A stretch of DNA of 64,000 nucleotides from Planctomycetota bacterium (GCA_021776735.1 JAJFFH010000024.1:87744-151743); one strand, 5' to 3'; positions 4,093 through 63,519 are shown, numbered from the stretch's first letter. Translations and numbers: made by a program. Notes: generated from the sequence alone by a model not told the origin.

Positions 4093-4112
4093 ACATCGCC
4101 GTCCGTTTGCTG
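4093..4112 (+). repeat. copy of the dispersed motif (ACATCGCCGTCCGTTTGCTG; core at 4095-4106)
   Basis: Exact 12-mer with the GCAAAC flank, in the intergenic region upstream of the trkA start, beside a G7 tract. Confidence 0.8.
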
Positions 4113-4141
4113 TGGTCCTCGTCCGCCGGGTAAGCGCGCGG

Positions 4142-12737: not shown

Positions 12738-12760
12738 ACCGCCGTCCGAATCCCGAAGGG

Positions 12761-12780
12761 AGCAAACGGACGGCGATGTT
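12761..12780 (+). repeat. copy of the dispersed motif (AGCAAACGGACGGCGATGTT; core at 12766-12777)
   Basis: Exact 12-mer with the GCAAAC flank, between the convergent 3-prime ends of the Sel1 gene and the 12802..13635 gene. Flanked by short complementary runs (CCCGAA ... TTCGGG). Confidence 0.8.
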
Positions 12781-14005: not shown

Positions 14006-15493
14006 TCAGCGGGTGGTGCGCTTCACTGTGGGGACGCGCAGGGCGTTGGTCAGGGTTTGGCCGCCGCGGCGCCAGCGGATCGACAGGGAGCCCTTGGCTC
14101 CGGCGAGGGCGGCGCGGAGTTCTTCCAGGTTGGCGATGTTGCCGTCGCCGCCCCAAAAGATCAGGTCGCCGCGGCGCAGGCCTGCGCGGTGCGCCGCGCT
14201 GCTCTTGCGCACCTGTTGGACGAGCACGCCGGTCGTGTCCGCATCGAGCCCAAAGAAGGTACGGAACTGGTCGCTCAGATCGACGCAGGTCAGGCCGAAG
14301 TTCGATTCGTTCACCAGCTCGCGGCGCGCTTCGGTGAGGTCGCCCAAGGTGACTTCGACATCGCGGGTGTCGTCGCCGCGACGCACACGCAGGGTCAGCT
14401 TGTCGCCGGGTGCGCGCATCGCGAGGGCCCGCGACAACATCGCGCTGCTCTGACACCGCACGCCGTTGGCGGACAAGACCTTCTGGCCCTTTTGCAGGCC
14501 CGCGGTCTGCGCCGGTGACTTGTCCAGTACCGCGGTGATCTCGACGCCCTTCTCCCCCACCGTCTCGCCCAGCACGACACCCAGATAACTGTGGCGCACG
14601 CGGCCGTGCTCTTTCAGATCGGCGACGACCCGCGCAATGACCGGTCCGGGGACATAGGCGTTACGGGCGTGCGGCGAGGCCCTGCCGCGACGTCCGACGA
14701 CGCGCCCGGTTGCGGCGTTCAGGTATTGGGTGTTGGCGACGGCCACCAGGGTGTGCCGCTGGCTCGTGACTCCGAGGTTGAGATCGGTCTGCGTGTTCGC
14801 TCCGGCGTGACACTGCCCGCACGACATCGCCGATGCGACCTTGAGGCCGCCACCGATACCGAGCAGCTTGCCGCCCGCGCCGATGAGCGCACCGCCGAGC
14901 TGCCCTTCGCCGCCGTACAACCAGCCGAGAACCGGGTCTGCACCTTGCACGAGCGCCAACCCGAGTGAACCGCGCGCGTGCACCGCCAGCGTACCGGTCG
15001 CAAGATCGTTCCAGTCCCGCGCGGGCTCTAGTCCCGTCAGCTTCGCAGCGGTGTCTTTGGGCAACGCAAAAACAGCCACGCCCAACTCGGCGTCGCCGCC
15101 CACGCGCTCCGCGCCCATCTCGCTGCCGTCGGGCAGGATCACCTGCAGTTTCTTCGCGCTGGCGGCCACGGCGTGGGGCACGACGACGACCGGCGGGTTC
15201 CCCACAAGCACCCCCGTACCCGCCACGCGCTTGCTCCGTCGCGTGAGTTGACTTCCGCGGACGACGAATTCGTACACCCCCGCCCTGTTCTTGGTGGCGC
15301 GATGGCCCGGCCACGTCACGAGCCCGGTGTGCGGATCCCTGGTCGCGGCAACGTGCACTTCGACGGTCGCGGCGCGAGCCTGCACGGCCAGCTTGCGGGT
15401 TTCGTTTTGCAGACGCTGCAGCAGCGAGTCCTCGCCGACGGTCAGCGCCGTCACGCCCAGCAGCGCGCAGGTGATCAGTAGTTTTTGTTTCAT
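14006..15493 (-). CDS. HtrA/DegP-like periplasmic protein: S1C trypsin-fold domain plus two PDZ domains; catalytic serine apparently absent
   Basis: Signal peptide MKQKLLITCALLGVTALTVG. His (VVPHAV) and Asp (DAELGVAVFAL) regions present. The position of the GNSGG serine motif reads GEGQLGGALIGAGGKLLGI. Two PDZ-like segments (YLGVVLGE...GLQKGQKVLSANG; FGLTCVDLS...GLRRGDLIF). Confidence 0.7.
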   Translation of the reverse strand: MKQKLLITCALLGVTALTVGEDSLLQRLQNETRKLAVQARAATVEVHVAATRDPHTGLVTWPGHRATKNRAGVYEFVVRGSQLTRRSKRVAGTGVLVGNPPVVVVPHAVAASAKKLQVILPDGSEMGAERVGGDAELGVAVFALPKDTAAKLTGLEPARDWNDLATGTLAVHARGSLGLALVQGADPVLGWLYGGEGQLGGALIGAGGKLLGIGGGLKVASAMSCGQCHAGANTQTDLNLGVTSQRHTLVAVANTQYLNAATGRVVGRRGRASPHARNAYVPGPVIARVVADLKEHGRVRHSYLGVVLGETVGEKGVEITAVLDKSPAQTAGLQKGQKVLSANGVRCQSSAMLSRALAMRAPGDKLTLRVRRGDDTRDVEVTLGDLTEARRELVNESNFGLTCVDLSDQFRTFFGLDADTTGVLVQQVRKSSAAHRAGLRRGDLIFWGGDGNIANLEELRAALAGAKGSLSIRWRRGGQTLTNALRVPTVKRTTR

Positions 15494-15541
15494 CTCTTGC
15501 TCCTTCTCTCGGTCCTGAATGGCTCTCGGTCCCGATGGTTC

Positions 15542-15959
15542 TCAGCGGAGGCGGCGGTTGACGACAAAGCGCACCGCCGGCTGGGTCGGTTGGTCCATCT
15601 TCATGACCCGCGGCGGCCGCGCGGACGGGGCGCCTGCTTTTTCGCCTGAAATGGGTGCACGGTCGGTGGGCGAACGCGCGAGCAACGTGGACAGGACGCC
15701 CGCCACGAACACGGCGGCGTAGCGCATGATGCGCCGCCACGGCCGGTCGTGAAACTTGGCCAGGATGCGCCGCGGCTGATCCTCGGTCGGCGGCGCAACG
15801 GCGTAGGGCCTGAAGAGCAGCGCTCGCACGCGGGCGACCTCGGCGAACACCTGCGGGTGCTCAGCGATCGCCTGTTCCGCCGCGCGCGCCTCGTCGGCCT
15901 CGAGCAACTCGTCGAGGTAGTCAGCCATGAGGGTCTTGAGTTCGTCGCCGTGCTTCATG
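15542..15959 (-). CDS. anti-sigma factor (zinc-finger/RseA-like N-terminal domain, one TM segment)
   Basis: 139 aa directly downstream of the ECF sigma gene (start 2 nt after its stop). N-terminus MKHGDELKTLMADYLDELLEADEARAAEQAIAEHP and a central TM MRYAAVFVAGVLSTLLA. Confidence 0.65.
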
Positions 15960-15960
15960 G

Positions 15961-16512
15961 TTACTGCTCGCTCTCGATCACGGGCCTCAGCCGGTGCGCG
16001 AGAATCTCGCGCGCGTGCCGAAACCGCTGTTTCGCCGTGCGTTCCGAGACATCGAGCGCCTCGGCCACCTTGGCGTAGGTCAGTTCGTGGTGTGCGCGCA
16101 ACAAAAACGTCGCGCGCAAGTCCGGCGGCAGCCGCTCCACCTCGGCGCGCACGCGCGTGTCGAGGTCGCGGGCCGCCACCGCGTCGACTGCATCGCCGTC
16201 CGTCAGCTCCCCGTCGAGGCGTTCGACAGGACGACGCCGGCGCAACCGATCCCGAAACAGATTCGTCGCCACGCGAAAAAGCCACGCTCCCAGGGTTCCG
16301 TTGTGAACGTGGAGCCGGTGTTGGTGACGCAGAAAACGTACGAAGGTCTCTTGGCAAAGTTCGTCCGCTGCCCACGGATCGCCGGTCAGGCGGGCCAGGT
16401 AGCCGTGGATTTTTCGTCCATACTCCTGGTAGATCGCTTCGAATCCGTCCGCCATGCACCCCGTAAGACGCGGGGGACGCGTGATTCGGGAAGGGAATCC
16501 CGGCGGATTCAT
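15961..16512 (-). CDS. RNA polymerase ECF-type sigma factor (sigma-70 family, regions 2 and 4)
   Basis: FEAIYQEYGRKIHGYLARLTGD...DELCQETFVRFLRHQ (region 2) and LTYAKVAEALDVSERTAKQRFRHAREIL (region 4 HTH). The start at 16512 gives an ATGA overlap with the upstream gene; alternative start MADGF at 16455. Confidence 0.85.
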   Translation of the reverse strand: MNPPGFPSRITRPPRLTGCMADGFEAIYQEYGRKIHGYLARLTGDPWAADELCQETFVRFLRHQHRLHVHNGTLGAWLFRVATNLFRDRLRRRRPVERLDGELTDGDAVDAVAARDLDTRVRAEVERLPPDLRATFLLRAHHELTYAKVAEALDVSERTAKQRFRHAREILAHRLRPVIESEQ

Positions 16513-17069
16513 GTGAGCAGAAACAAGACGAGGGCGGTCCCGATCGGGATGCTCAGGTTGTCCGCTTTCGCCCCGCTCAGCGCCTCAAGGCCCGCCGCAG
16601 CCGCACCGCCCGCCACGGCGACGGGCCACGGGAAGAAAAAGAGCGCCCCCCCGGTGGCCGCCACGAAGCAGGCGAGGGTGCCTGCGACCGAGACCTTTCC
16701 GCGGCGCGGCGACCGGACGGAGCCGCCGACGATCGCAGCGGACGGGTCGCCCAGGGCCAAGGCGAGAATACCGCCGCACGCCGGCGCTGCGGGAAACAGG
16801 GCGACCGCGGCGGCGCACCCGGCAAAGTACAGGGTCGAACTGTTCCACCCGTGCATGTCCTTTTTGTCGAGGATGGCGCGAAACCACTTGCCGAACCAGG
16901 CCTGGACTTCGGGCGACCGGGCGCGGAGGAGGTCCAAGGCGCCCCAGGCGACGACAATGCCCGCCAGAATGCCCGCGGCGACGGGCCGGGAGAGCGGTAC
17001 GAGGCGGTAGACCAGGACGATCACGACGCCGGTCGCGTGGAAGAGCTTGCGGGAGTAGTGGACGGCCAT
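16509..17069 (-). CDS. polytopic membrane protein, CTP-dependent transferase/dolichol-kinase-like family
   Basis: 186 aa, about 5 TM segments, N-terminus MAVHYSRKLFHATGVVIVLVY typical of the phosphatidate cytidylyltransferase/dolichol kinase superfamily. The assignment is tentative. Confidence 0.45.
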   Translation of the reverse strand: MAVHYSRKLFHATGVVIVLVYRLVPLSRPVAAGILAGIVVAWGALDLLRARSPEVQAWFGKWFRAILDKKDMHGWNSSTLYFAGCAAAVALFPAAPACGGILALALGDPSAAIVGGSVRSPRRGKVSVAGTLACFVAATGGALFFFPWPVAVAGGAAAAGLEALSGAKADNLSIPIGTALVLFLLT

Positions 17070-17271
17070 ACGGGCGGTTTCGTGGCACGCTGTGGTGCGT
17101 TGGGTACAGATCCATACACGAGCGGCGAGGCGAGGGCGGTCGCAAACCCATGCGGCGGCGGTATTTACAGATTTTTTGCGGAATTTGCGGCGTAGGACCG
17201 GTGTTTGCTACGTCTATACATATGTGTGGGGCCCGGACGGGTCGAGCCGACAAAAGCAAAGAAGAAGTCCG

Positions 17272-17640
17272 ATGCCGAACCAGACGAAGAACCCCCAAAA
17301 CCGTACCCGGAACGGAAAGACGACACGCGAATCGTCCGAACAGGGCGAACTGCGTGTCCTGCGCCGTGGCACCACCGCGGTCCGCCAAGCGACCCTTCGA
17401 AAGGCCGAACCCCGGATGCACCCCATCACGTTTTGCGTGAGCTGCCAAGAGGCGATTCCCGCCAAGGCCATCACGTGCTTTCGCTGTAACGCGAAGCAGC
17501 CTCACGGCGAAGACGCCGTCCAGGTCGTCTTCTGCGACAAGTGCGAGAAGGACTATCCGGCCCGCGCGCTGTCGTGCCACCACTGCGGCCACCTGAACGC
17601 ACGCCACCCGTTGGTCCGCGGCGGCAGCATTGCCAGCTAG
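17272..17640 (+). CDS. double zinc-ribbon domain protein
   Basis: 122 aa with CxxC...CxxC...CxxC...CxxC spacing (FCVSCQE...CFRCNAKQ...FCDKCEKD...CHHCGHLN). Confidence 0.55.
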   Translation: MPNQTKNPQNRTRNGKTTRESSEQGELRVLRRGTTAVRQATLRKAEPRMHPITFCVSCQEAIPAKAITCFRCNAKQPHGEDAVQVVFCDKCEKDYPARALSCHHCGHLNARHPLVRGGSIAS

Positions 17641-17725
17641 CGGTCGCGGCCTCCGGGAACGTTCGCGCGTGTTCGGCATCGCGCGTGCCCGTGCTTCGGC
17701 GCGTCGAACCCCTTCTGAGGCAGTC

Positions 17726-17744
17726 GACGGACGGCGATGTTTGC
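17726..17744 (+). repeat. copy of the dispersed motif (GACGGACGGCGATGTTTGC; core at 17727-17738)
   Basis: Exact 12-mer at the left edge of a 760-bp ORF-free region. Confidence 0.8.
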
Positions 17745-18403
17745 TCGCTTCGGGGGGGATCCCCACATTTGAGCTGCGGGATTTCGCGCCTGCGCGAGGC
17801 CGAGTCCCGACCCCCGCGTCCACGGCTTCAACAAGCCCGGAAAAATAAGTTGTACCCGCCGGCGAGTGCCGCCCCGCCAGCGGATACAGGAGGTAAGGAG
17901 GGTCGAGGGTGTTTCGCTGCCCACCCGGCGTTGCGCCGCGTAGGCATGGGAACGTTATCCCTGGTTTCGCGAGGCGCAAACCAATGGGACCAAAAAGGAC
18001 GAATTGGGACCAAAGGACCGGAGTCGGCGTTAGTCTCGGCCTTAGGGCGGCTCCGTCAGCTCTGCGACAGCCGCTTTTGCGTTCGGAATAGATTACGCCC
18101 GCGGCTCGCTGGCCGATTCTCTGTCGCACCCTCGCGTTAGGCTTTCGTTAGCCTCGAAGATCGAGGCTGATCGCCGTTCCCGTGTTCACCACACGCGGTT
18201 CGAATGCTCAGGGTTCGATCGGCGGGGGCAGAGGCACCCACGCACGACCCATGCGGCGACCGCGGCGCTGGCGCATCCGAGGTGCGCGAGCGCGCACCGC
18301 CCTACCGGTGCAGGCCGGTGCGAGCACGCGGGAGCGAACCACCCCGGTAATGGCAACTGGACCGCCCTGATCGCGGTCGCGCCCACTTCCTACAGCTGCC
18401 AGA

Positions 18404-19153
18404 CTACCGGCCGCGATCTCCACGGGTGCGGTTGCCGCGGAACATGTTCCGTCGGCTCAGGGACTCATCCACGATTGTCTTGGCGTCTGCCGCGGCGACG
18501 AAGCCTTCCAGGTCCTTTTGGGCTTCGGCCTTCAGGCTGTCGAACTCGGTCTGGAACAGGGTCCGCATTTCTTCGCGAGGCATGCTGCGCAAGTCGTTGT
18601 TCTCGCGGATTCTGGTCCAGATCTGGGGAATGCGGCCGCGGGCGCCCAAGAGCGACTTCGCGACCCGGATCTTCTTCTTGGCGCTGAGGGACGCGATCTT
18701 GTTGTCTGCGCTCAGCTTGTCGATGTCCTCGACCACGCGATTGATGCGGTCCTCTTCACGATTGAGTTCGTTGGCCTCCGCGACCTTCTTGCGGAAGGTC
18801 TCCATCGCGGGATCGGCGGCGACCGTGACTTCCGTGCCCTCCGCAGTGGCGTCGGCAGTTTCGGTCCCGCCGCCTTCGACGGCTGTCGGTGCGTCCGACC
18901 CGTCGCCGGAGAACGGGACCATTCCGCCGCCCTCGGCGACGGCGCCCTGTCGGAGCGATGCGAGTTCGGCTTCCATACGACGCTTCCACTGCTCGTTCAT
19001 GCTGCTGTCGTCGTACGCCGGATCGGCGCCGCGTTCGGCCTGGGTCCGGCGGTTGTCCACCTTCGCCTCAAGGTCCGCCTGACCCATCCAGAGATAGGCG
19101 ACGAGCGCGAGGGCGATGACGTTGCTGATGACGAGAATGGGCACAGCCTTCAT
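18404..19153 (-). CDS. membrane-anchored hypothetical protein (single N-terminal TM, acidic/coiled-coil body)
   Basis: 249 aa, MKAVPILVISNVIALALVAYLWMG then a charged helical sequence. Confidence 0.5.
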   Translation of the reverse strand: MKAVPILVISNVIALALVAYLWMGQADLEAKVDNRRTQAERGADPAYDDSSMNEQWKRRMEAELASLRQGAVAEGGGMVPFSGDGSDAPTAVEGGGTETADATAEGTEVTVAADPAMETFRKKVAEANELNREEDRINRVVEDIDKLSADNKIASLSAKKKIRVAKSLLGARGRIPQIWTRIRENNDLRSMPREEMRTLFQTEFDSLKAEAQKDLEGFVAAADAKTIVDESLSRRNMFRGNRTRGDRGR

Positions 19154-19233
19154 GGCACGAACTCCTGCGGAGGGACCGGATCCGCTCTTGTATTAACCTA
19201 CAGGTCCCTCCTGAAGTTCCGCTGAACCCCAAA

Positions 19234-20865
19234 ATGACGTATCTGCTCCTCGTCTGCCTCGCCGCTCCCAACTTCGTAAATGTGGCCGAATCCGCCGGTC
19301 TGACCGGTTTTTCCAGCGGTAGGGCCGTGTTTGTGGACCTGAACGCCGACGGCCGCCTCGACGTGGTCCTCGACCGGCAGCACTTCTTTCGCCAAGCCGA
19401 AAACGGCCGATTCGAGAAGCTGCCCCCCCTCCCCGCCCCCTCCCCCCCCGGCCTCCTCCTGTTCGCCGACTTCGACAATGACGGCGACCTCGACTGCTTC
19501 GCGGGGTACTTCACCGAGCCCGAGAATCCGAAGCGCAAGAACAACGACGGCCGGAACACGCTGTATCGCAACACCGGCGACGGCTGGGTGGCGGTGCCGC
19601 TCAAGATGCCGCGCACGTCGGTCCACGCCGCGTGCGCGTTCGACTATGACCGCGACGGCAACCTCGACCTGTTCGTGGCGTCCGGCTACGTCGTCTACGG
19701 GCGCGGGCTGGAGGCGCATCCCGACCGGCTCTACCGCGGCGATGGCAAGGGCGGCTTTGTCGATATGACCCAGCGCGTCGGACTGCTGACCGCGACTGCG
19801 CCCGGGAAAATGGCCTCCAGCAAACCGACGTACGGCGCTGCGCACGGCGATTTCGATGGCGACGGCTGGCAGGATCTCTGGGTGTGCACCTACGGACGAC
19901 AGTGGAACCATCTCTGGCGGTACGACCCCAAGCGCGCGGCATTTGCGAACGTCGGGAAAGATAGCGGGTTTCGCGGCGATGCCGTCACGCACGGCCGATA
20001 CCCGGCGTGGCTCAAGAAGTTCTGGAAGAAAAAGTACGGCAGCGAGCGGCAGGACGAGCAACCGTTTCGGGCCAACGGGAACACGTTCGACTGCGCGATC
20101 GCCGACTACGACAACGACGGCGACATGGACTGCATCCTTGCCGAGATCACGCATTTGTGGGCCGGGGACTCGAGCGACCGGACCTCGCTGCTCGTAAATC
20201 AGGGCGGGAAGTTCCAGCGGCGCGCGGACGCGTTTTCACGCCGGCACGTCATCGAACGGTGGAACCAGGGCGACATCCACGCCGGCTGGATCGACTTCGA
20301 CAACGACGGACTGCTCGATGCGCTCATCGCCAGCAGCGACTACCCCGACCGCCAGGAGCTCCGGTTGTTCCGCCAGCGGCCGGACCACACCTTCGAGGCG
20401 CCGCGGACGTTCTCGTGGGAGGGCGCGGGCCAGATCAGCGTCGGCGACTATGACAACGACGGCGACCAGGACATTCTCTGCGGGCGCAGCCTGAACCGCC
20501 TGCCAAAGGACCGGCGCAAAGAACTCGGAAAATCGTGCGCGCTGTTTCGCAACGAGGTCGGCAACAAGAACCACTGGCTCCAGGTGGTTTGCACCGGAAA
20601 GAGCGGGAAAGGCGGAAAGGGCGCAAATCGCGACGGCATCGGCTGCCGCATCCGAGTGACGACCGCGGACGGAGTCACCCAGACCCGTGAGATTCGCGGC
20701 GGCCTCGGTCATGCCGGGCACAACGGCCCGTACGTCGCCCATTTCGGGCTGGGAGCGCACAAGACGGCGGCGCGCGTCGAAGTCGTCTGGCCGGACGCAG
20801 CCGGCAGCCGCCGGGTACTCAAGGACCAATCCGCGAACCGCCGCCTGCAGATCGAACAGCGATAG
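19234..20865 (+). CDS. FG-GAP/VCBS-repeat protein with C-terminal ASPIC/UnbV domain (CRTAC1-like)
   Basis: Repeated Ca-binding-like FDNDGDLD / DYDRDGNLD / DFDGDGWQD / DYDNDGDMD / DFDNDGLLD / DYDNDGDQD motifs. C-terminal ...GIGCRIRV...GGLGHAGHNGPYVAHFGLG is typical of the UnbV/ASPIC domain. Confidence 0.85.
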   Translation: MTYLLLVCLAAPNFVNVAESAGLTGFSSGRAVFVDLNADGRLDVVLDRQHFFRQAENGRFEKLPPLPAPSPPGLLLFADFDNDGDLDCFAGYFTEPENPKRKNNDGRNTLYRNTGDGWVAVPLKMPRTSVHAACAFDYDRDGNLDLFVASGYVVYGRGLEAHPDRLYRGDGKGGFVDMTQRVGLLTATAPGKMASSKPTYGAAHGDFDGDGWQDLWVCTYGRQWNHLWRYDPKRAAFANVGKDSGFRGDAVTHGRYPAWLKKFWKKKYGSERQDEQPFRANGNTFDCAIADYDNDGDMDCILAEITHLWAGDSSDRTSLLVNQGGKFQRRADAFSRRHVIERWNQGDIHAGWIDFDNDGLLDALIASSDYPDRQELRLFRQRPDHTFEAPRTFSWEGAGQISVGDYDNDGDQDILCGRSLNRLPKDRRKELGKSCALFRNEVGNKNHWLQVVCTGKSGKGGKGANRDGIGCRIRVTTADGVTQTREIRGGLGHAGHNGPYVAHFGLGAHKTAARVEVVWPDAAGSRRVLKDQSANRRLQIEQR

Positions 20866-20928
20866 CGCCCGCGGGACCGAATCGGTAGACTCCCGCCTTC
20901 GGCACGGACACCTAAGCGGAGGATTCCG

Positions 20929-22446
20929 ATGGAGCAAGGTCGCGAACGCTGGGCCAGCCGGCCCGCGTTCATCATGGCAGCGGTCGGCAGCGCGATCGGT
21001 CTGGGCAACGTCTGGCGTTTCCCGGGCGTGGCGTTCGCCAACGGCGGCGGGGCATTCTTCGTCCCCTACTTCATCGCCCTGCTGACGGCCGGCATTCCGC
21101 TGATGATCGTGGAGTACGGCCTCGGCACCCGCTACCAGGGGTCGGCGGCGAAGTCTTACCGAAAGCTTGGTGCGAAGTACGAGTGGATCGGCTGGTGGGC
21201 GGTGCTCATCGGCCTCATGATCTCGTTTTACTACTGCGTAATCCTGGCGTGGTCGTGGGAGTACTGCTGGGAGTGCGCCAAGGGCATCTTCAGCGGCGAA
21301 TTGCCGTGGGACAAGGGCAAGGCGGGCGACTACTTCGACAAAGAGATTGTCCAGAACACCGGCGCAGACAACCTAGGCAGCTTTAACATCGCGGCCGCAC
21401 TCGGCCTCGCGGCCACGTGGATCGTGGTCTATCTGTCCATCGCCAAGGGTGTCCTGCGCGTGGGCAAGGTCGTCATGATCACGGTGCCGCTGCCGCTGAT
21501 TATCCTGGTTCTGCTCGCCGTACGCGGCCTGTCGCTTCCAGGTGCGATGGACGGACTCGCCTACTACCTGGCACCCGACTGGGCCAAGCTGGCGGAGTTC
21601 GACACATGGGTCGCAGCCTACGGCCAGGTGTTTTTCTCCCTATCGGTCGGCTGGGGCATCCTGATCGCATACGCGTCCTACATGCCCAAAGACTCCGACG
21701 TGGTGAACAACGCCTATCTCACGTCGTTCGCCAACTGCGGCTTTTCGTTTCTCGCCGGCTTCGCCGTGTTCAGCACCCTGGGCTACCTCGGTTTTGCGCT
21801 GAATCAGCCCATCGCGGATCTCAAGACGACCAGTTTCGGACTGGCGTTCACGAGCTACCCCACGGCGGTCGAAAACTTCCCGGGCACCGGTAGTTTCCAG
21901 GCGTTACTCGGTCTGCTATTTTTCCTGATGCTCCTGACCCTGGGCGTCGATTCGGCGTTTTCGATCGTCGAAGCGATGGCCACGGCGATGTACGACAAAT
22001 TCCGGATGAACCGCCAGCGGCTGACGCAGATGCTCTGCGGCGGTGGCTTCCTGATGGGGCTCATCTACTGCTTCGGAACCGGGTTGTCTTGGCTTGACAT
22101 CACGGACAAATACCTGACCGACTATGGGTTAACCATGGTCGCCCTGACCCAGTGCCTCCTCGTGGGCTGGGTGATTTCGAAGTCCCGCTTCAAGGAGTTG
22201 CAGGACGAGATCAACAAACGCTCCGAGTTCCGCGTCGGCGCGTTCTGGAAATGGTCGCTCAAGGCGATCACACCGCTCGTGCTGATCGTCACCCTCTGGC
22301 TCGCTTCGAAGAAACTCATCGCCGAGGGCTACGGGGGCTATCCCACGGACAAGCTGATCATCTTCGGGGTCGCGCCCGCCGCAATCGTCTTGGTGCTGTC
22401 GTTTGTCTTGATGAACATGAAGGGAGCCGGCGATGATGAAGACTAG
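20929..22446 (+). CDS. neurotransmitter:sodium symporter (NSS/SNF, SLC6-like) family transporter
   Basis: N-terminal signature RERWASRPAFIMAAVGSAIGLGNVWRFPGVAFANGGGAFFVPYFIALLTAGIPLMIVEYGLG and about 11-12 TM segments. Confidence 0.9.
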   Translation: MEQGRERWASRPAFIMAAVGSAIGLGNVWRFPGVAFANGGGAFFVPYFIALLTAGIPLMIVEYGLGTRYQGSAAKSYRKLGAKYEWIGWWAVLIGLMISFYYCVILAWSWEYCWECAKGIFSGELPWDKGKAGDYFDKEIVQNTGADNLGSFNIAAALGLAATWIVVYLSIAKGVLRVGKVVMITVPLPLIILVLLAVRGLSLPGAMDGLAYYLAPDWAKLAEFDTWVAAYGQVFFSLSVGWGILIAYASYMPKDSDVVNNAYLTSFANCGFSFLAGFAVFSTLGYLGFALNQPIADLKTTSFGLAFTSYPTAVENFPGTGSFQALLGLLFFLMLLTLGVDSAFSIVEAMATAMYDKFRMNRQRLTQMLCGGGFLMGLIYCFGTGLSWLDITDKYLTDYGLTMVALTQCLLVGWVISKSRFKELQDEINKRSEFRVGAFWKWSLKAITPLVLIVTLWLASKKLIAEGYGGYPTDKLIIFGVAPAAIVLVLSFVLMNMKGAGDDED

Positions 22447-22894
22447 AATCGTGTTGCTCGCTCTTCTGGCCGCGGCGCCCCTGTGGGCGGAAGAAAAGAA
22501 AGACGCGCTGGCGATCGTCGGCGACCTCAAGGCGGTCATTGAGGCAGACAAGCCGTGGAAGGAGCGCTGGACGGCCTACCGCAACGCCAAGGACGCCGTG
22601 GACGCAGCCGAAGTCGAGTTCCTTAGGAAACTCTCTGCCGACCAAAAAAAGACACTGAAGAATCAGCTTGAGCAGATCAAGAAAGACCGCGGGCCGGAGC
22701 ACGGTGACTACGGTTCCCCGGCGGGCAAAGCGTACGAGGCAATTCGCAAGGACGTCGCGGACTCAATCCGTCGCGATGCGCTTCCCCCCAGCGGCTGGAT
22801 CATGGCACTGGTCGGCATCGTCTTGCTCTGGGGTGGGTTCGCATTCTGTGTGGGCCGCGCGGTGCGGACGGGCAAGGATGCCGCAAAGGGCTGA
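22433..22894 (+). CDS. small secreted/membrane protein translationally coupled to the NSS transporter
   Basis: 153 aa with signal peptide MMKTRIVLLALLAAAPLWA and a C-terminal TM. Start overlaps the transporter 3-prime end by 14 bp. Small accessory subunits are known next to some bacterial NSS genes. Confidence 0.5.
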   Translation: MMKTRIVLLALLAAAPLWAEEKKDALAIVGDLKAVIEADKPWKERWTAYRNAKDAVDAAEVEFLRKLSADQKKTLKNQLEQIKKDRGPEHGDYGSPAGKAYEAIRKDVADSIRRDALPPSGWIMALVGIVLLWGGFAFCVGRAVRTGKDAAKG

Positions 22895-23000
22895 CGTCCA
22901 CTTTCCGGGACAATCCGGGGCGCCACACAGCCTTGCGGGGTCGCTATGATGGCCCCGCTCGACAAGCGCGCGTGGCACGGGGTTTGACCATGCCCGGGCG

Positions 23001-24086
23001 ATGACGAGTTCTGTCGCCGTGCCGCCCCCCGCCGATACCGCCCAGCCGGACTGCGAGTTCCGGCGCCTTGACCCCACGGATCCGGCGTGGCAGGCCTTGC
23101 TCACAACCCACCCCCTCGCGGAGTCGGTGCGGCCGATGTGGGAAGAGGTCGCCGGGTGGGAAGCGATTCGGATCGGGAAGTTCACGGACGGCGATGTCCA
23201 GGCCGGAATCCAGTTCCACACCCGCGGCCTCCCCGGCCTGCCGTGGCGCCTCGCACGCATCACACAACTCCTGCCCACACCGATCGCGGACCGATCGCAG
23301 GCCTGCACGGCAGCGCTCCTGGCCGAAGCCGAACGCGTTGCGTGGGAACGCCGGGTCGTGGAAATCGAGTTCCGGGCGCACATCCCGGTGCCCGACATGA
23401 TCGACGCCCACGGGTTCCACTCGGGCATCGGCAAAGGGCTCGACCAGGCCGGTTACACGCAGGTTCCGGAGTTCAACGGCACCTACTTCGTCGATATTGA
23501 CCGCAGCGACGAGGAGCTCCTCCTCTCGTTCAAGAAAACCACGCGCAGCGAGGTCCGCCGCCCGAAGAAGAAGGGTTGCCGAATCGAAAGGGGCGACGAA
23601 TCCCTGCTTGAAACCCTGTTCGACGGGTACGCCGCTATGGGCGCGCGCAAGGGTCTCGGCGAAACAACGTTGCCGCGCCCGTTCGTGGTGGATCACATGA
23701 AACCGCTGGTACAGGCGGGCCATGTGCACCTGTACTACGCTGCGTACGGCGACGACATCAGCGACATCGCCCTGATCGATGCCCTCGGCACACCGATCAA
23801 CATGCAGTCGGTACGCCTGACCGCCAGCCTGTCGAACAAGTACCCGTCAGCCGCGCGCCGCCTCCACTACGTCATCATGACGATGCTCCGCGACGAGGGC
23901 AAAAAGCTGTACGACCTCGGCGGCAGCCCGGCGCCGGTCCCGATCCCCGGCCATCCGAACTACGGCGTCTGGCAGCACAAGTACCACTACAAGGGCACCT
24001 ACGTCCCGTACATCCCCCGCTTTCGCAAGGCACGAAGCCGCTTCGGTGCCAACCTCGCCCGAACCGTCCGCTTCGTCCGCGACTGA
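23001..24086 (+). CDS. FemAB-family (GNAT-fold aminoacyl-transferase-like) protein, copy 1
   Basis: 361 aa with the FemAB-like C-terminal half (...LHYVIMTMLRDEGKKLYDLGG...). Proteins of this kind are described next to exosortase/PEP-CTERM polysaccharide loci. Contains an in-frame copy of the dispersed 12-mer (FTDGDVQ). Confidence 0.65.
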   Translation: MTSSVAVPPPADTAQPDCEFRRLDPTDPAWQALLTTHPLAESVRPMWEEVAGWEAIRIGKFTDGDVQAGIQFHTRGLPGLPWRLARITQLLPTPIADRSQACTAALLAEAERVAWERRVVEIEFRAHIPVPDMIDAHGFHSGIGKGLDQAGYTQVPEFNGTYFVDIDRSDEELLLSFKKTTRSEVRRPKKKGCRIERGDESLLETLFDGYAAMGARKGLGETTLPRPFVVDHMKPLVQAGHVHLYYAAYGDDISDIALIDALGTPINMQSVRLTASLSNKYPSAARRLHYVIMTMLRDEGKKLYDLGGSPAPVPIPGHPNYGVWQHKYHYKGTYVPYIPRFRKARSRFGANLARTVRFVRD

Positions 24087-24140
24087 CGAGCCCGTCCGAC
24101 CGACAGCCCGAGGCTCATCGCGCAGGAATCCCGAGAAAGC

Positions 24141-24381
24141 CCACGGACGGCGATGTGTGCCCGAACCGCACATCCGCGCGGCAGGATTGCCTGGCACCAA
24201 TCAGGCTCGCAGTGCGGCAGGATTACATGGCACCGTCCCGGCTGACAGTGCAGCACGATTACGTGGCACCAATCAAGGCCGGGTGGTCGGCGTGCGTAAC
24301 CGATTGTCGCTAAACGGCTTGCGACGAATTCGCGCCGCTGCGGGCGGCGTCCCCGGGACATCGCCGTCCGTTTGCTTGCTG
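24141..24381 (+). repeat. composite intergenic repeat element A: inverted copies of the dispersed motif (24143-24154 and 24360-24371) flanking three 36-bp direct repeats (24178-24285) that each contain TGGCACC
   Basis: Repeat units GCGGCAGGATTGCCTGGCACCAATCAGGCTCGCAGT / GCGGCAGGATTACATGGCACCGTCCCGGCTGACAGT / GCAGCACGATTACGTGGCACCAATCAAGGCCGGGTG. TGGCAC at 24192, 24228 and 24264, exactly 36 bp apart. Confidence 0.75.
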
Positions 24382-24445
24382 CAGGATCCGCCGAGCCAAT
24401 GCCGCGGGCTAAGGCGTGCGCGGTGCTAGAACCGATGGAAGATTC

Positions 24446-26404
24446 GTGTGCGGCATAGCGGGATGGTTCCAACAAGACGGTGCGCCCGTCGACCCCTCGG
24501 TGCTGCGGGCGATGGGCGATGTCATCGAGCATCGCGGCCCCGATGAGGAGGGTTTTTTTCTCAGTCGATCGGAGCCGCCGCCGGAGTGGCCGGCCGGGGT
24601 GCCGCTACGCTGCGCTGGACCAGGCGTGGGCGAAGTGGGCTTTGCCCATCGCCGGCTGTCCATCATCGACCTCAAAACCGGGCAACAGCCGCTCTGCAAC
24701 GAGGACGGCACGGTCTGGATCGCCTTCAACGGCGAGGTCTACAACTTTGCCGGACTCAAGACCGAGTTGGAGGCCAAGGGCCACCGCTTCCGCACGAACT
24801 CCGACACCGAAACCATCGTCCACGGGTGGGAAGAGTGGGGTGAGGGCGTCGCCGAACGGCTCCGCGGCATGTTCGCGCTGGCGGTCTGGGATGCGAAGAA
24901 GCGTTCGCTCTACCTGGCTCGCGATCGCCTCGGGAAAAAGCCGCTGTACTACCTGCACGACGGCAAGCGCTTCCTGTTCGGCTCCGAAATCAAGTCGATC
25001 CTCGAGGTGCCCGGCGTGTCGCGCGACATCGATCCCATCGCGCTGTCGGACTACCTGTCCTTGCTCTACGTCCCGGCGCCGCGCTCGATCTTTCGCGCGG
25101 TCTCAAAGCTCCCGGCCGGCCATCACGCGATCGTGACGCCGGACCGGATGACGGTGAAGCCCTATTGGGACCTGTCGTTCGAGCCCGTGGACGAGGCGCC
25201 GCAGAGCGAACAAGAGGGGCGGCTGCTGGAGATCCTCGGCGACGCGACGGACATGCGCATGATGTCCGAGGTTCCGCTGGGCGCGTTCTTGTCCGGCGGC
25301 GTCGATTCCTCCGGCATCGTCGCGCTCATGGCCGGCCTGTCCGACCAGCCGGTGAAGACCGCGTCCATCTCGTTTAGCGAGAAGGCCTACGACGAGTCGC
25401 CGCACGCCCAAAGAGTCGCGGAGTTGTTCGGCACCGAGCACCACGTCATGCGGGTGACGCCGGACGCGGTCTCTGTCGTCGAGAAGCTGGCCTGGCACTA
25501 CGACGAGCCATTCGCGGACTCGTCCGCGGTCCCGACGTACTACGTCTCGAAGATCGCCCGCGAAAAGGTCACTGTCGCCCTTTCCGGCGACGGCGGCGAC
25601 GAGAATTTCGCTGGCTATCGCCGCTACGCGATCGACGCGCTCGAGCACCGCATCCGCGGCATGATGCCGCGCGGCCTCCTCGCGCTGGCGGGCCGGCTGT
25701 ACCCGAAGGCGGACTGGCTACCGCAGCCGCTACGCGCCAAGACCGTGCTCTCGAACGCCGCGCGCGACCCCGCGGCAGCGTATTGCCACACGATGTCGTT
25801 CCTGCACGAGGCCGACAAGCGTCGCCTGCTCGCCCCGGGCATGCTCGCCGCCCTCGACGGACACGAAACAGTGGAACTCTTTCGCCGCCACTACGACGCC
25901 GCGCGCGCGAACGACCATCTCTCGCGCCTGCAGTACCTGGACATCAAGACCTACCTCTGCGACGACATCCTGGTCAAGGTGGACCGGGCAAGCATGGCGA
26001 ACAGCCTGGAAGTACGCTGCCCGATTCTCGACCACGTCTTCATGGAGTACGCCGCGACGATCCCCAAGGACCGCAAGCTCAAGGGCAAGGACGGCAAGCA
26101 CATCCTCAAGAAGGCGTTCGGCCGGTTGCTTCCGGAAGACATCCTCTACCGCAAGAAGATGGGCTTCCGCGTCCCGATCAAGGAGTGGCTGCGAACCGAC
26201 CTCAAGGACTTCGCCCACGACCTGATCGTGAACGGCGCGGGCACCCAGACCTACCTCCAGGCCAACGAGGTCAGCCGCCTGTGGAACCAGCACCAGGGCG
26301 GCATGCGCGACCGCGCCACGGAGCTCTGGACACTCCTGATGTTCAACCTGTGGCACAAGACCTTCGTAGAACGCGGCTCCCCGATCGCCACGACCTCGGC
26401 CTGA
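24446..26404 (+). CDS. asnB: asparagine synthase (glutamine-hydrolysing)-family amidotransferase
   Basis: Start GTG 24446 gives M-CGIAG (Cys2 nucleophile). N-terminal Ntn glutaminase domain and C-terminal PP-loop SGGVDSS. The ORF tool's upstream start at 24416 is also GTG. Confidence 0.9.
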   Translation: MCGIAGWFQQDGAPVDPSVLRAMGDVIEHRGPDEEGFFLSRSEPPPEWPAGVPLRCAGPGVGEVGFAHRRLSIIDLKTGQQPLCNEDGTVWIAFNGEVYNFAGLKTELEAKGHRFRTNSDTETIVHGWEEWGEGVAERLRGMFALAVWDAKKRSLYLARDRLGKKPLYYLHDGKRFLFGSEIKSILEVPGVSRDIDPIALSDYLSLLYVPAPRSIFRAVSKLPAGHHAIVTPDRMTVKPYWDLSFEPVDEAPQSEQEGRLLEILGDATDMRMMSEVPLGAFLSGGVDSSGIVALMAGLSDQPVKTASISFSEKAYDESPHAQRVAELFGTEHHVMRVTPDAVSVVEKLAWHYDEPFADSSAVPTYYVSKIAREKVTVALSGDGGDENFAGYRRYAIDALEHRIRGMMPRGLLALAGRLYPKADWLPQPLRAKTVLSNAARDPAAAYCHTMSFLHEADKRRLLAPGMLAALDGHETVELFRRHYDAARANDHLSRLQYLDIKTYLCDDILVKVDRASMANSLEVRCPILDHVFMEYAATIPKDRKLKGKDGKHILKKAFGRLLPEDILYRKKMGFRVPIKEWLRTDLKDFAHDLIVNGAGTQTYLQANEVSRLWNQHQGGMRDRATELWTLLMFNLWHKTFVERGSPIATTSA

Positions 26405-26435
26405 TTCGAGCCGGAATCCACTCCGGGGCGGAAGC

Positions 26436-26650
26436 AGACGGACGGCGATGCCTCCGGCTCCGGGGTCAGTCGAACGCGTCCGTCGGCGTCGAGGCCGCCG
26501 AGTACGGGTGCCAGGTAATCCTGCTGCCATCACCGGCCGGCAACAGCAGGATCCCCTGGCACCGTACCGGCAGCACGGCAGCAGGATCCCCTGGCACCGT
26601 ACCTCTGGCACCGTACCTCGTGGCACCGTACCTCGCCGTCCGTACGCTCC
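26436..26650 (+). repeat. composite intergenic repeat element B: inverted copies of the dispersed motif (26438-26449 and variant 26633-26644) flanking an imperfect inverted repeat (26506-26528 / 26546-26568) and a 15-bp x3 tandem array of TGGCACCGTACCTC(G)
   Basis: GGGTGCCAGGTAATCCTGCTGCC ... CAGCAGGATCCCCTGGCACCGTACC. TGGCAC at 26557, 26592, 26606 and 26621. The unit GCAGCAGGATNNCCTGGCACC is shared with element A. Confidence 0.75.
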
Positions 26651-26780
26651 GGTTCTCGAGCGCCCGCCGCGGGCCGAAGGCCCGTCGGTGCGCCTGCCAA
26701 AAAAAGGCGAGCAGCGGCTTTTTGGCCCGGAGTTCGCGCTACCCCACGCAACAGGCCGATTCTGTTCATAGAATCCGACA

Positions 26781-27887
26781 TTGCGGACACCTACGTTGCT
26801 GACCCCCACCATTTCCACGATTTCGAGTAGCTCGACCGTGACAATCGCGACCCCCTCCCTCGTGCGTGCGTTCCGAACATCGGACGCTCCCGCATGGGAC
26901 GAGTATGTGACGCGACATCCGCGGGCCACGTTTTTTCACCAGACCGGCTGGAAGCGCGTGCTCGAGCGGGCGTTCCCGCACGCTGCGTACTACCTCGTGG
27001 CCGAGCGCGCCGGCGCGATCTGCGGGGTGCTGCCGATGTTCTTGTGCCGCGGACTTCGAGGCCGGCTCGGCCTCTACTCGCTGCCGCACACTGTCTTCGG
27101 CGGTCCGCTCGGCGACGACCGCGCCGTGGAGGAATCGCTGCTTGCCGCCGCCCACAACCTGGGCTCCTCGCTCGGCGCACGCGTCCTGGAACTGCGCAAC
27201 CGCTACGAGAACCTGCTCGACCTGCCCGTCCACGAGGGCAACGTCACCTTCGAAAAGGAGCTGCCGGCCACGGTGGACGAGGTCAGGGGCACGTTCCCCA
27301 AGAACGCACGCGCGGCGATCAATCAGGCAGTGAAACGCAACGGGCTCTCCGCCGCGTTCACGCAGGAGCTCGACGTCTTCTACGAAATCCTGGGACAGAC
27401 TTACCACCGGCTCGGATCGCCCCTCTTTCCGCGCGAGTTCTTCGCCGCGATGCGCGACGAGTTCCCGGACGACGCGTTGATCCACGTCGTTCGCCAAGGC
27501 GACACGCCCGTCGCCGCCGCGCTCTGCCTGTGCTGGCGCGGCATCATCAGTCCGGTGTACAGCGGCCAGGCGCCCGGCGCACAACGGCTCAATGCCGACA
27601 ACTTCAAGTACTTCGACATCATGCGCGAGGCCGTCGCCCGCGGCATGACGCACTTCGACCTCGGCAAGACCCGCACGTCCAACACCGGCGGGATGAGGTT
27701 CAAGAAGCACCAGGGCTTTGTCCCGACGGCCCTGCCGTACCAGACCGTCGAGCTCGTGCCCGGCGCGGGCGACGACGGCTCCGATCCGACCAGCGGCTTC
27801 TTCATGAAAGCGCGGCGCATCTGGAGTCGCATGCCGGCCGGCGTGGCCGGTGTTCTCGGTCGGCGTCTGATCCGCTTTTTTCCGTAG
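26781..27887 (+). CDS. FemAB-family protein, copy 2
   Basis: 368 aa, paralogous in architecture to 23001..24086 (HQTGWKRVLERAF..., ...YFDIMREAVARGMTHFDLGKT...). Confidence 0.65.
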   Translation: MRTPTLLTPTISTISSSSTVTIATPSLVRAFRTSDAPAWDEYVTRHPRATFFHQTGWKRVLERAFPHAAYYLVAERAGAICGVLPMFLCRGLRGRLGLYSLPHTVFGGPLGDDRAVEESLLAAAHNLGSSLGARVLELRNRYENLLDLPVHEGNVTFEKELPATVDEVRGTFPKNARAAINQAVKRNGLSAAFTQELDVFYEILGQTYHRLGSPLFPREFFAAMRDEFPDDALIHVVRQGDTPVAAALCLCWRGIISPVYSGQAPGAQRLNADNFKYFDIMREAVARGMTHFDLGKTRTSNTGGMRFKKHQGFVPTALPYQTVELVPGAGDDGSDPTSGFFMKARRIWSRMPAGVAGVLGRRLIRFFP

Positions 27888-30539: not shown

Positions 30540-33500
30540 CTACGGGACGCTGACTGTCGCGACGTTGCTCACGTCGCTCATCTGCTTCTCGGTGAGCGCA
30601 ACCAGCGCGACATAGATCGTGCCGGAGGCCGAAACCTCAAACTCGATCGTCTTGCTGGCACCCGCCGCCACCGGGAAAATTCCGGCGGAGTTGGAAGCCC
30701 AAGCCTGGCGAACACCACTGCCGCTGTCATAGGTCGGCGCGATGGGCTCGGTGGACCAGACCAACAGCACGCGCTCGGCATTCGCCGGAGCGGTGAAGCT
30801 CGCCCGCACCTTGCCGCCCGCGACCGAAGCGGACAGGTTCGTGACCTTGCCCGGACGGGCATGGTTGTTCACGCCTTCCTGGATGTGCCACCAGTAGGCG
30901 CGGGTCTCGTAGGAACCGTTCCAGGCCCCGGAGCCCCAGTTGTTGCCGTACGGCGCCTTGCCGTCGCCGACGCCGCCGTCGATGAAGTCGTCGACGAGCG
31001 TTCGGTGGCCTTCCTGGCCGGTGATCTGATACCAGTAGACCTCGGGGTCGATCATGCTCAGGCCCGAACCACTCGACTTGTTGTTGACCTCGTCGTGTCC
31101 GACGTAGTAGCCGAAGCGGCCGCTGTTGAGCTGCCAATCCATGATGCCCCAGAGGAACTGGAACGCCCGCGCTTCATGCTCGGGATGATGGTTGCGCATC
31201 TCGTTGTAGGCCCCGGAGAACGTGCGGGCCATAAAGCCCATCTGGAACGACGCTTCGCCGTTCTTGCGGAAGTTGCCGTAGCGGGGGAAGTAGGTGAACG
31301 TGCGAATCCACTCGAGCCGGTTCTTGATCGCACTCAGAAGCGAGGCATCGCCGGTTACGCGGAACGCTGCCAACGACTGCGCCAGCATGTGCGCCTCGCC
31401 GCGTGTTTCCCAGTTCCACTCGAAGAGACCGTCATCGTCATCCTGGTCCTTGGTGGTGCGCAGGAGCGACCGCTTGCGGAACTCGCCCATCCACTCGTAC
31501 CAGTCCCGAATCCACGGGTTGGCCGACTGGAAGTAGAAGTCCTCCATGTGGTAGAGCCAGCCGTGCTCGTTGTCCCGCGGCTTCCACTCGGTTGTGGAAG
31601 TGCCGGACAGGTACGGCGCGGCCAAGTACGGACGACCGTGGCCGTCGAACGCGCGCCAGCTCTTGCCGCCGTACGGGTTCATGGTCGGGGTGATGGTCGC
31701 GAAGTCAGCCTCGTGCGTGTAGCCGGGGATCCACATGGGGCGTACGTAGATGTCGCCGTAGACCCAGGCCTCGGTCTCGTAGTAGTCCTGGACGCGCCCG
31801 CTGGCGAAGAAGTGTCCGCCACCACGCGGCCAGTCGCCGACCTGGTTGGACTTCTTGCGCTTGGAATCGCCGCCGTAGTTGACCCAACCGAGACGGTACC
31901 GGGCGTGACCCGGATCGCGGTGCTTTTCCTCGAACTGCGGCACCTTGTTGTCGGCGCCGGAGACGAACGACGTGGACATCGAGCCGCCGAGCCCGGGCAC
32001 GGCGCCCGAGTTGGCGTAGTCCGCCGCCGGGATCACCGTGACGGGGTGCCACGTGAAGTTGGCAGCGAGCGCCTCGATCTCGTTGTTCGAGGTGTTGGCG
32101 CCGTGGAAGTAGAGCAGAGTCTCCTTGACGGAGCACTGCATCTCCTCGAGCCAGTACAGGCCCGTGCCGTTGTGGTCGCCGTTGAGGAACATCGAGCTCC
32201 ACTTGGGCCAGAGACGGACGGCGATGTTCTTGTCGCTCTCGATCTCGACCGCGTTCGGCCAGCGCAGCGCCATGTGACGAATCATCACGGCGACGCCCTT
32301 GCTGGAGTCCGAAACGTCGGCCCAACCGAACGACTCGGTGCCGGCCGTGTGCGACCCGCTCTCGAGCGTGCTGTTGTTGCCCGAGTCGCGTACGACCGAG
32401 CTGTGGTCGGTGTTTTGGAAGACGTGACGCCCCGAGCCGAGCGCGCCCTGCCAAACGACGCCGGCCTTGGGGCTCATGCGCACGGTGGCCGAGCCCAGGC
32501 TCGGCTTGAGGTTCAGCGAAACGTCGTCGAAGTACAGCGGCGAGGAGAACTTGACGTTCTTCGCGCCGTTCTGGAGCTGATAGTCGACCTTCACGAACGC
32601 CTTGCCGGCGTACGCGAACAACCGCACGGCGAAGCCGTGGCGATGGTCGGTTGTGCTGTGGTACGAGCCGAGGCTCTCGATGCGGATCACGGCCCGCAGC
32701 GGTCCCGCCTCCTCGACCTTGACGGTGAGGTTGGTGCGGTCGCGACTGCCCTGGACGTCGCCGTCCAGGCGACCGGTGAAGACGGCGCCCTCGCTGGCCC
32801 CGGACTCGATGATCCGCTCGGAGGCGGCGTACGAGCCGTTGCCGTCGGCATCGACGTCAACCGTGTCGAAGATGTTGAAGCCGCTCTTCTTGACGGTGAA
32901 GCGCACCTTGCCCGTGTCGACCGTGACCAGATCGCTGGTCTCGGTGACGTTCAGGGCCATGCTCGGCGCGGGGTTCGCGCCGCCATCCGACTTGAAGAAG
33001 AACGTCGCGTCCCCATCGGCGGGAACTGTGGCCGTGAAGTGTGCGGCAACAAAGCGCAGGCTGTTGTCGCGCGCCCACCAGCGGCTGAGAATCTTGAACT
33101 GCGCGGCGACGGAATTGCCGTCCGCGTCGGTGATGCGGAACTTGTCGATCGACTGGTACTGACCGAAATCCATCGGGATCACCGCGATGACGGGGTGCGC
33201 CGTCGCGCCGTAGCCGGCGGCGTCCTTGACCGTCAGGCGGATGCCGTCACCCTGCGGCGCCTCGTCGTCGGAAGCGACGATGGAGACGCGCACGGGATCG
33301 GCGCCGGTCAACGTGACCTGCGCGACCGCAAGGCCGTCGATGGAGTTGGCGTCCTGAACGGCACTGAACGTGACCGTCTGGATCTGGTCCCAGTTGTCGC
33401 GCGTAAACGTCAGGCTCGCGGGACCGCTGTAGACCAGCGACCCGTCGTTCTCGACGATCTCGATTGCGATGGTAACCGTCTCGGCCGGGAGCGCCGAAAG

Positions 33501-63481: not shown

Positions 63482-63519
63482 GGTTGACCCCCCGTTCCCG
63501 CCCCCCTATCGTTGACCCC

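Follow-up and report, generated by a model that had tools for sequence, protein, structure and literature searches.

A REP-like repeat array upstream of asnB in a planctomycete exopolysaccharide locus and its probable relation to a RAYT-type transposase

The 64,000-nt stretch of a Planctomycetota bacterium that is considered here (GCA_021776735.1, JAJFFH010000024.1:87744-151743; in the following the window, with a G+C content of 66%) contains an exopolysaccharide (EPS) gene cluster with the gene order FemAB-1/asnB/FemAB-2, in which a 360-bp spacer separates the FemAB-like open reading frame (ORF) FemAB-1 (23001-24086) from asnB. This spacer carries a short repeat array, which is here called element A. 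We think that element A is probably a BIME-like (bacterial interspersed mosaic element) cluster of three head-to-tail repeats resembling repetitive extragenic palindromes (REPs), and that the family to which they belong is the cognate flanking repeat of a HuH/Y1 transposase of the REP-associated tyrosine transposase (RAYT) type in Planctomycetota. A second cluster of the REP-like family, element B, in which direct copies and short tail units accompany an inverted doublet, is found directly after the asnB stop codon, and each of the two intercistronic spacers contains one element. This assignment is based on the homology of the units, their inverted arrangement on both sides of RAYT genes, their dispersal, the covariation in their stem and the absence of both clusters from the closest relative. 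On this reading, element A is an ordinary REP cluster of a family that we did not find described in the literature, and a string search of the literature with the motifs of the unit and of a 14-mer that accompanies both clusters returned unrelated primer sequences only.

Two repeat clusters around asnB

An earlier note on this DNA had described an inverted pair of perfectly matching 14-nt motifs between the FemAB-1 stop codon at 24086 and the asnB start at 24446, and, enclosed by them, three 36-bp direct repeats with TGGCAC at exactly 36-bp spacing. Both observations hold at the positions listed below, and TGGCACC is found at 24192, 24228 and 24264. Measured from 14-mer to 14-mer, element A is 229 bp long. 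The two 14-mers match with 0 mismatches; when extended to 23 nt, the arms are 87% complementary, and 201 nt separate them. Tandem Repeats Finder (TRF) reports an array with a 36-bp period at 24178-24275 (2.7 copies, score 119), and repeat finding gave 100, 78 and 69% identity to unit 1 for the three in-register 36-bp units. Element A is composed of the following parts.

24143-24156, plus strand: left 14-mer ACGGACGGCGATGT, 57 nt past the FemAB-1 stop codon; the AGCNN upstream of it fits the generic extended motif
24178-24213, plus strand: REP-like unit 1, core GCAGGATTGCCTGGCACC at 24181-24198
24214-24249, plus strand: REP-like unit 2, core GCAGGATTACATGGCACC at 24217-24234, with a single mismatch in the stem
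24250-24285, plus strand: REP-like unit 3, core GCACGATTACGTGGCACC at 24253-24270, 3' half degenerate
24286-24357, no strand: unique spacer of 72 nt between the array and the right 14-mer, no match to other repeats found
24358-24371, minus strand: right 14-mer, inverted, at 75 nt before the asnB GTG; in the fold predicted for the whole element it is paired with the left copy

Element B, which the earlier note had not linked to element A, is a twin of it with the same layout (26438-26643, 206 bp). Its inverted doublet, formed by 26507-26527 with 26544-26563, spans 20 nt at 90% complementarity.

26438-26451, plus strand: left 14-mer, 1 mismatch, 34 nt past the asnB stop codon
26507-26527, minus strand: inverted REP-like unit, core GCAGGATTACCTGGCACC; forms the doublet with 26544-26563
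26544-26603, plus strand: two direct REP-like units with a 35-bp period; the 25-mers 26544-26568 and 26579-26603 are 100% identical
26592-26629, plus strand: three short tail units TGGCACCGTACCTC(G) with a 14-15 bp period
26630-26643, minus strand: right 14-mer, inverted, 1 mismatch; abuts and overlaps the last tail unit

With at most 3 mismatches, the 18-mer core GCAGGATTNCNTGGCACC occurs six times in the 64-kb window, where 0.56 occurrences are expected, and with at most 2 mismatches the 14-mer is present in 31 copies (16 on the plus and 15 on the minus strand) against an expectation of 1.5. As both counts are far above expectation, the structure of element A is not a matter of chance. All six 18-mer cores and all tail units of the window are located within the two intergenic spacers that flank asnB.

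The repeat family and its associated transposase

The core of the REP-like family can be written as GCG-GCAGGWTYACCTGGCACC-GTAC, and the unit as GCAGGWTYNCCYGGCACC. A pattern scan of species-representative genomes, in which the matches listed were mostly single chance ones, brought up a contig with several copies from a Planctomycetaceae metagenome-assembled genome (MAG; L005). A gene for a 330-aa Y1 protein at 1509-2501 of this contig (Pfam Y1_Tnp, IS200-like; PF01797, E 9e-8) is surrounded by nine units upstream on the minus strand (880-1400) and four units downstream on the plus strand (2864-3080), which are interleaved with reiterated GGCACCGTACC and GTACC sub-units. A metagenome scan for relatives of this protein gave 14 full-length homologues with at least 58% identity, and 12 of these 14 loci carry the unit or its GGCACCGTAC tail at about 60-250 bp from the gene ends. 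Around these close homologues the orientation never varies, with minus-strand units upstream of the gene and plus-strand units downstream of it, a rule that is also obeyed in two further contigs with a RAYT gene, L142 and L144. No units were found at the loci of relatives with 41-44% identity.

The copies in the window clearly belong to one family with those that surround the transposase genes. In unit 1 of element A, CGCGGCAGGATTGCCTGGCACC (24178-24199) agrees with the RAYT-flanking consensus at 21 of 22 positions, and the element B unit at 26507-26524 is identical at 18 of 18 positions to RAYT-flanking copies and their consensus. The TGGCACCGTACCTC tail sub-unit of element B is also reiterated in the RAYT-flanking arrays of L005, L117 and L142. 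In L142 and L144, copies are furthermore found at a distance of 6-7 kb from the RAYT gene: the former possesses an intergenic cluster 6 kb away in which an inverted doublet is combined with three CTGGCACGGTAC tail units, which is the layout of element B, and the latter a solo intergenic copy (17589) 6.5 kb downstream of the gene. In a tandem array with a 38-bp period in L118, the inter-unit spacer ends in CAGT, as it does in element A. Elsewhere the neighbours of the unit are unrelated genes, such as those of DUF2959 proteins, oxidoreductases and molybdopterin enzymes. A RAYT gene that is flanked by inverted copies of a dispersed short repeat has been termed a REPtron (PMC6006769; PMC3733652), and we read the present system in this way because inverted copies of a short repeat surround its Y1 gene and are also dispersed to other intergenic sites.

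Most of the contigs with RAYT homologues measure only 1-3 kb and break off shortly after the gene, at the flanking repeats. The only other public copy of the window region, the 7.1-kb Logan contig L001 (SRR15505515), which was reached via a look-up of the SNF transporter protein, is 100% identical to 19474-26571 of the window and terminates inside the repeats of element B. Both observations would follow from repeated flanks, which break assemblies.

The assignment of the associated protein to the RAYT type is based on the following results. In an alignment of 15 relatives, HHVMNRG is invariant, and little or no variation is seen in the HuH motif THFH (THFHLL) and the Y motif YIHDN[AP]V. The sole NCBIfam match is NF047646 (REP-associated tyrosine transposase), with E values of 1e-14 to 2e-16 and coverage of the full profile, and the alignment profile matches only a single chain in the PDB, 4ER8, which is the E. 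coli TnpArep (E 0.004). Many relatives are named "REP element-mobilizing transposase RayT" by JGI. Judged by YIHDN[AP]V and THFH, the protein appears to belong with the class 2 (RAYT-like) enzymes. Relatives with E values of at most 1e-20 number 649, and those with an organism name come from Planctomycetota or Planctomycetaceae MAGs. The protein possesses a conserved C-terminal extension of about 190 aa (columns ~150-337; LADGTRPW ... KDAW..LRAGLLRLL.G.TH.EI..RV.RH..TISRDVRDH), which is not present in the 165-aa E. coli TnpArep. As a precomputed HTH_38 match exists for one relative (P0135), this extension may be a DNA-binding domain.

The unit consists of a short hairpin, CAGG-N4-CCTG with one outer G-C pair, and a GGCACC-GTAC tail. 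Over 35 distinct copies, the 4-bp stem CAGG/CCTG with its 4-nt loop is paired in 93% of the alignment cells. An A-T pair is replaced by G-C in eight cells, with four G-T intermediates, and unit 3 of the window contains a compensatory CACG/CGTG instead of CAGG/CCTG, in which G-C is exchanged for C-G (one case). The covariation score was reached by none of 500 shuffles, and slid registers fall to 22-59% paired. This covariation points to pairing within a nucleic acid rather than to the fixed half-site of a protein.

A comparison with related genomes for the presence or absence of the repeats, which the earlier note had envisaged, found their presence at this locus to be lineage-specific. The closest syntenic relative, the JGI metagenome contig L114, is collinear with 14185-27161 of the window, and its asnB is 84% identical at the protein and 82% at the nucleotide level. 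Both elements are missing there. Between a small upstream gene and asnB, L114 has 60 bp, without FemAB-1 and without element A (window 22895-24430 versus L114 9770-9831), and its spacer after asnB lacks about 260 nt that correspond to 26405-26664 of the window, which is all of element B including both 14-mers; the alignment resumes downstream. Neither units nor 14-mers are found in L115 and L116, whose AsnB proteins are 67% identical. A gain in the lineage of the window would be a simpler reading of these alignments than a loss in the relatives.

By analogy with E. coli TnpArep (4ER8), the units would be recognized as single-stranded DNA hairpins and would be cut and rejoined in trans by a RAYT that is encoded elsewhere in the genome. 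The arrays would then grow and shrink by tandem duplication, which is supported by the identity of 26544-26568 and 26579-26603. At the locus itself, the repeats would be non-autonomous DNA that sits passively in the two spacers between the cistrons. Locally they would most likely have a structural effect, with stem-loops in the FemAB-1/asnB/FemAB-2 transcript or in the DNA, and in the EPS transcript they would act as intercistronic stem-loops at most.

Known repeat systems and competing explanations

To our knowledge, REP/RAYT systems have been studied almost entirely in Proteobacteria. The REP/BIME sequences and RAYT REPtrons of E. coli, Pseudomonas and Stenotrophomonas (Nunvar 2010, Ton-Hoang 2012, Di Nocera 2013) are likewise non-autonomous extragenic stem-loop repeats, and they also occur as singletons, inverted doublets and tandem clusters, as found here with the head-to-tail units of element A, the doublets of element B and L142, and the tandem array of L118. 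They share with the present family the HuH/Y1 gene inside inverted repeats, a conserved tetranucleotide beside the hairpin, and the breaking of assemblies at these sites. Clusters of REPs that are reiterated in tandem (Di Nocera 2013, PMC3733652) as well as REPs with stems of only 5 bp (PMC3733652) have been described, and the planctomycete Rhodopirellula baltica possesses many tyrosine transposase genes with corresponding flanking repeats (PMC3733652).

A number of features weigh against our assignment. The core stem has only 4 bp (about 8 if mismatches are included), which is short for a REP. Folded as DNA, single units reach -2 to -7 kcal/mol with mostly non-significant z-scores (-1.3 to +0.9), and because of this weak folding the units are palindromes in the sense of REPs only marginally. 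Beside the hairpin stands the tetranucleotide GTAC, each position of which is matched by 38-41 of the 49 units, and not the GTAG/CGTC of the known REPtrons. Moreover, the units of element A do not have this foot but AATC, GTCC and AATC instead; by its foot, element A is more degenerate than element B. Unlike in the known REPtrons, the arrays here reiterate the hairpin-less sub-unit GGCACCGTACC, and the protein, with its 330 aa and its C-terminal extension, scores 54-60 bits with NF047646, which is under the curated cutoff of 80. The repeat-flanked RAYT gene is known from related genomes only, no Y1 transposase gene is encoded within the 64-kb window, and the presence of a cognate RAYT in the source organism is assumed. 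With just two clusters in 64 kb of the source genome, support for a high copy number is indirect and comes from the distant copies in L142 and L144 and from the contigs that break at the RAYT flanks. Finally, the REP model does not account for the bracketing of both clusters by inverted 14-mers.

Two further systems are worth comparing. In contrast to the REPINs of Pseudomonas fluorescens, in which REP doublets form hairpins (Bertels and Rainey 2011, PMC3116915), element A is head-to-tail only, and doublets do not predominate among the copies examined here. The class 3 TnpA_Y1 genes of Planctomycetes and Acidobacteria (Quentin 2018, PMC6006769) are similarly bordered by a number of small, unusual structures that have a tetranucleotide foot and may reach many copies, but these enzymes have a Y----Q motif (YV[VI].EQ), an NHVH HuH motif and a CnGA foot, whereas YIHDN[AP]V, THFH and GTAC are found here.

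As alternative to a REP cluster with an accompanying motif, the elements could be composite miniature inverted-repeat transposable elements (MITEs), in which the 14-mers are the terminal inverted repeats (TIRs) of a miniature element with the REP array as its cargo, brought in as one piece by a DDE-type transposase. We regard this as unlikely, although the gross architecture would agree with it. Elements A and B both run from a plus-strand 14-mer over the array to a minus-strand 14-mer with similar total lengths (229 and 206 bp), and inverted repeats are present at their ends (a perfect 14 nt in A, 14 nt with 1 mismatch per copy in B). The block that is missing in L114 (26405-26664) fits the 14-mer-bounded element B within about 30 nt, and a rough estimate from the density of intergenic 14-mers gives a chance of about 1e-3 for the inward bracketing of both clusters. 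Both elements are predicted to fold closed with their 14-mer arms paired (z -2.5 and -3.7 for A and B), largely because of the inverted repeats themselves. The Correia elements of Neisseria are also intergenic blocks of about 200 bp that are bounded by inverted repeats and missing in a relative. Other observations do not fit such an insertion. There is no target-site duplication at A or B, where the best direct flank matches are like those of shuffled sequences (p 0.32 for A, 0.53 for B); an apparent GCAGGA(A)TCC..CGAG direct repeat flanking element A was likewise rejected as not significant (p 0.32). No homology of A or B extends outside the 14-mer arms beyond the generic motif (p 0.24-0.66), and the four element ends share nothing past the generic AGCNN-14-mer consensus. 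The interiors of A and B differ in content and order and are not collinear. Most 14-mers are solo and about half are coding, only 4 of the 31 bound these two elements, and two other close pairs (6070/6261 and 38404/38577) face outward. Lastly, at a coding site that is syntenic with L114 the motif differs by substitutions and not by an insertion. As the defining features, namely a target-site duplication and element-specific TIRs, fail, a TIR-bounded MITE is unsupported. From the MITE-like insertion that the earlier note had considered, there remain the dispersed, non-autonomous nature of the repeat DNA and the absence of the block from L114, whereas its proposed ends are generic motifs and a target-site duplication is lacking.

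The 14-mer is a separate, lineage-specific motif that is far more abundant than the REP-like units, and it does not mark where the REP family ends. In its extended form the consensus is RAGCNN-ACGGACGGCGATGY, and the motif was not found in L005, in L114-L116 or at any RAYT locus examined. Example sites in the window are 901, 4093, 12766, 17727, 23184, 32214, 45081, 47491, 54055, 62295 and 63455. Among 25 copies within one mismatch of a 13-mer form, about half are intergenic and half coding, and they are mostly solo. A PALP-family gene contains the copies at 6071 and 6261, and the FemAB-1 gene has an in-frame copy at 23184 (T-D-G-D). Five intergenic 14-mers, including the left copies of elements A and B, lie 16-57 nt past a stop codon in sense orientation, one copy supplies the start codon of rmlC (44531), and the copy at 12766 makes up the 3' arm of a hairpin that resembles a terminator and is situated between convergent genes.

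12738-12774: terminator-like hairpin, CGCCGTCCG, 18 nt, CGGACGGCG; A-run before and T-run after

Two possible roles of the motif were tried and rejected. The ATG in the 14-mer as a general start or initiation signal fits rmlC only; most ORFs opened in this way are short or have a low G+C content at third codon positions (GC3), and one of them, 5537-6073, is internal to a longer PALP-family gene. The 14-mer as a conserved hairpin loop with covarying flanks gave 2.33 mean pairs against 2.34 in the control (permutation p 0.49). At the syntenic coding site, L114 reads GCATCGCCGTCCAC, from which the 14-mer copy differs by substitutions only. Within the stretch that is syntenic with L114, six of seven 14-mer copies are located in window-specific DNA, which would fit an acquisition or rearrangement linked to the motif. 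At 17629-17836 the window has about 210 bp, with the 14-mer 17727 mid-way, where L114 contains a GT4 glycosyltransferase gene (3814-4890). C-rich, CCCCCGCCCCCCC-like tracts occur 10-40 nt after several 14-mers (~4065-4090 on the minus strand, 42830-42850 on the minus strand, 63480-63500 on the plus strand, and 19423-19459), and a 27-nt C-rich run at 19423-19449 is situated near the start of an FG-GAP/ASPIC gene.

The association of the 14-mer pairs with both clusters is real and is not accounted for by the REP model. With about 0.4-0.5 copies per kb on both strands, its presence in coding and intergenic DNA, a possible origin by point substitution, its positions after stop codons and some inverted pairs, the 14-mer has traits that resemble those of uptake signals. 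The asnB-flanking elements might accordingly be imagined as composite cassettes, in which pairs of an uptake-signal-like 14-mer form terminator-like hairpins whose loops were colonized and expanded by REP arrays, but we consider this quite improbable. Should it hold, Planctomycetota would have their first reported oligomer that is uptake-signal-like or otherwise actively driven, and two unrelated repeat systems would be seen in interplay.

A different explanation is that element A is an array of sigma-54 (-24/-12) promoters, or of transcription factor sites, that controls asnB and the EPS genes. The earlier note had drawn attention to this possibility, since each unit was thought to have the GG-N10-GC spacing; this is true for units 1 and 2, but in unit 3 it is shifted by one base. 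As in sigma-54 promoters (TGGCAC-N5-TTGCW), a perfect TGGCAC as -24 box is found in each unit of element A, a GC occurs at the -12 spacing in units 1 and 2, the units are upstream of and co-oriented with asnB, and CAGG-N4-CCTG is a small dyad. Over 49 distinct units from the window and the related loci, however, the -12 dinucleotide is GC in only eight, which is about the expectation from composition, TGC or TTGC at -12 is found in none of them, and ten have CGGCAC in place of TGGCAC. The conserved part extends 5' of TGGCAC (GCGGCAGGWTYACC) and not toward a -12 box, and the dyad covaries, unlike a fixed protein half-site. The units form arrays on both strands and face away from the adjacent transposase gene on both of its sides, their other copies adjoin unrelated genes, and the EPS loci orthologous to this one in L114-L116 do not contain them. 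A scan of 30 window proteins gave no sigma-54 activator domain. As the -12 element is not conserved in the 49 units and the units point away from the RAYT genes, we reject a promoter array, and the idea of sigma-54-like or regulator sites driving asnB has become very improbable.

That element A is an idiosyncratic local tandem duplication without a family or a function is scarcely credible: its units are adjacent and their identity decays as in local duplications (100/78/69%), but the same 18-22-nt core is present in element B, L005, 12 RAYT loci, L142 and L144, thus in different assemblies, which refutes a purely local origin. Two other candidates were dismissed as well. A CRISPR-like array would have "spacers" of 14-15 nt, which are too short and are diverged copies of one another, and for a CsrA-type GGA sponge RNA, which CAGGAT had brought to mind, the one stem with support has its GGA paired, and units are found on either strand as well as around transposase genes.

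The surrounding locus and the meaning of the repeats

The gene between the two elements is context and not part of the repeat.

24446-26404, plus strand: asnB, glutamine-hydrolysing asparagine synthase, bracketed by elements A and B

It begins with a GTG at 24446 and the N-terminus MCGIAGW, and its product contains the Pfam domains GATase_7 and Asn_synthase. An exact-protein look-up of AsnB with two alternative starts gave no match. FemAB-1 and FemAB-2 show no significant similarity to each other (BLASTP E 0.09); FemAB-1 thus did not arise from FemAB-2 by a recent duplication. Between 22800 and 27000, no promoter of the sigma-70 type was found. Upstream of FemAB-2, a perfect dyad, ATTCTGTTCATAGAAT, is located at 26759-26774, and it is identical in L114 (11871-11886) despite the diverged spacer that surrounds it. 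As a conserved operator, the dyad would be a more promising candidate than the repeats. Rfam gives no family in or near elements A and B. Its sole match in the window is a c-di-GMP-I (cyclic di-GMP) riboswitch (RF01051, 61.5 bits) at 33886-33978 on the minus strand, immediately upstream of a 1098-aa PcRGLX-like gene (30540-33836, minus strand), which as a predicted element would tie the polysaccharide locus to control by c-di-GMP.

With the family described here, REP-like repeats and a cognate 330-aa RAYT-like protein are defined across many Planctomycetota assemblies. The pairing of 14-mers with the REP clusters is the one aspect that could lead to something new. For annotation, it follows that arrays with TGGCAC ought not to be labelled as sigma-54 promoters in these genomes, and the repeat arrays account for the breaking of assemblies at such sites. 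Around asnB, the long spacers would then contain lineage-specific repeat DNA and not conserved regulatory sequence.

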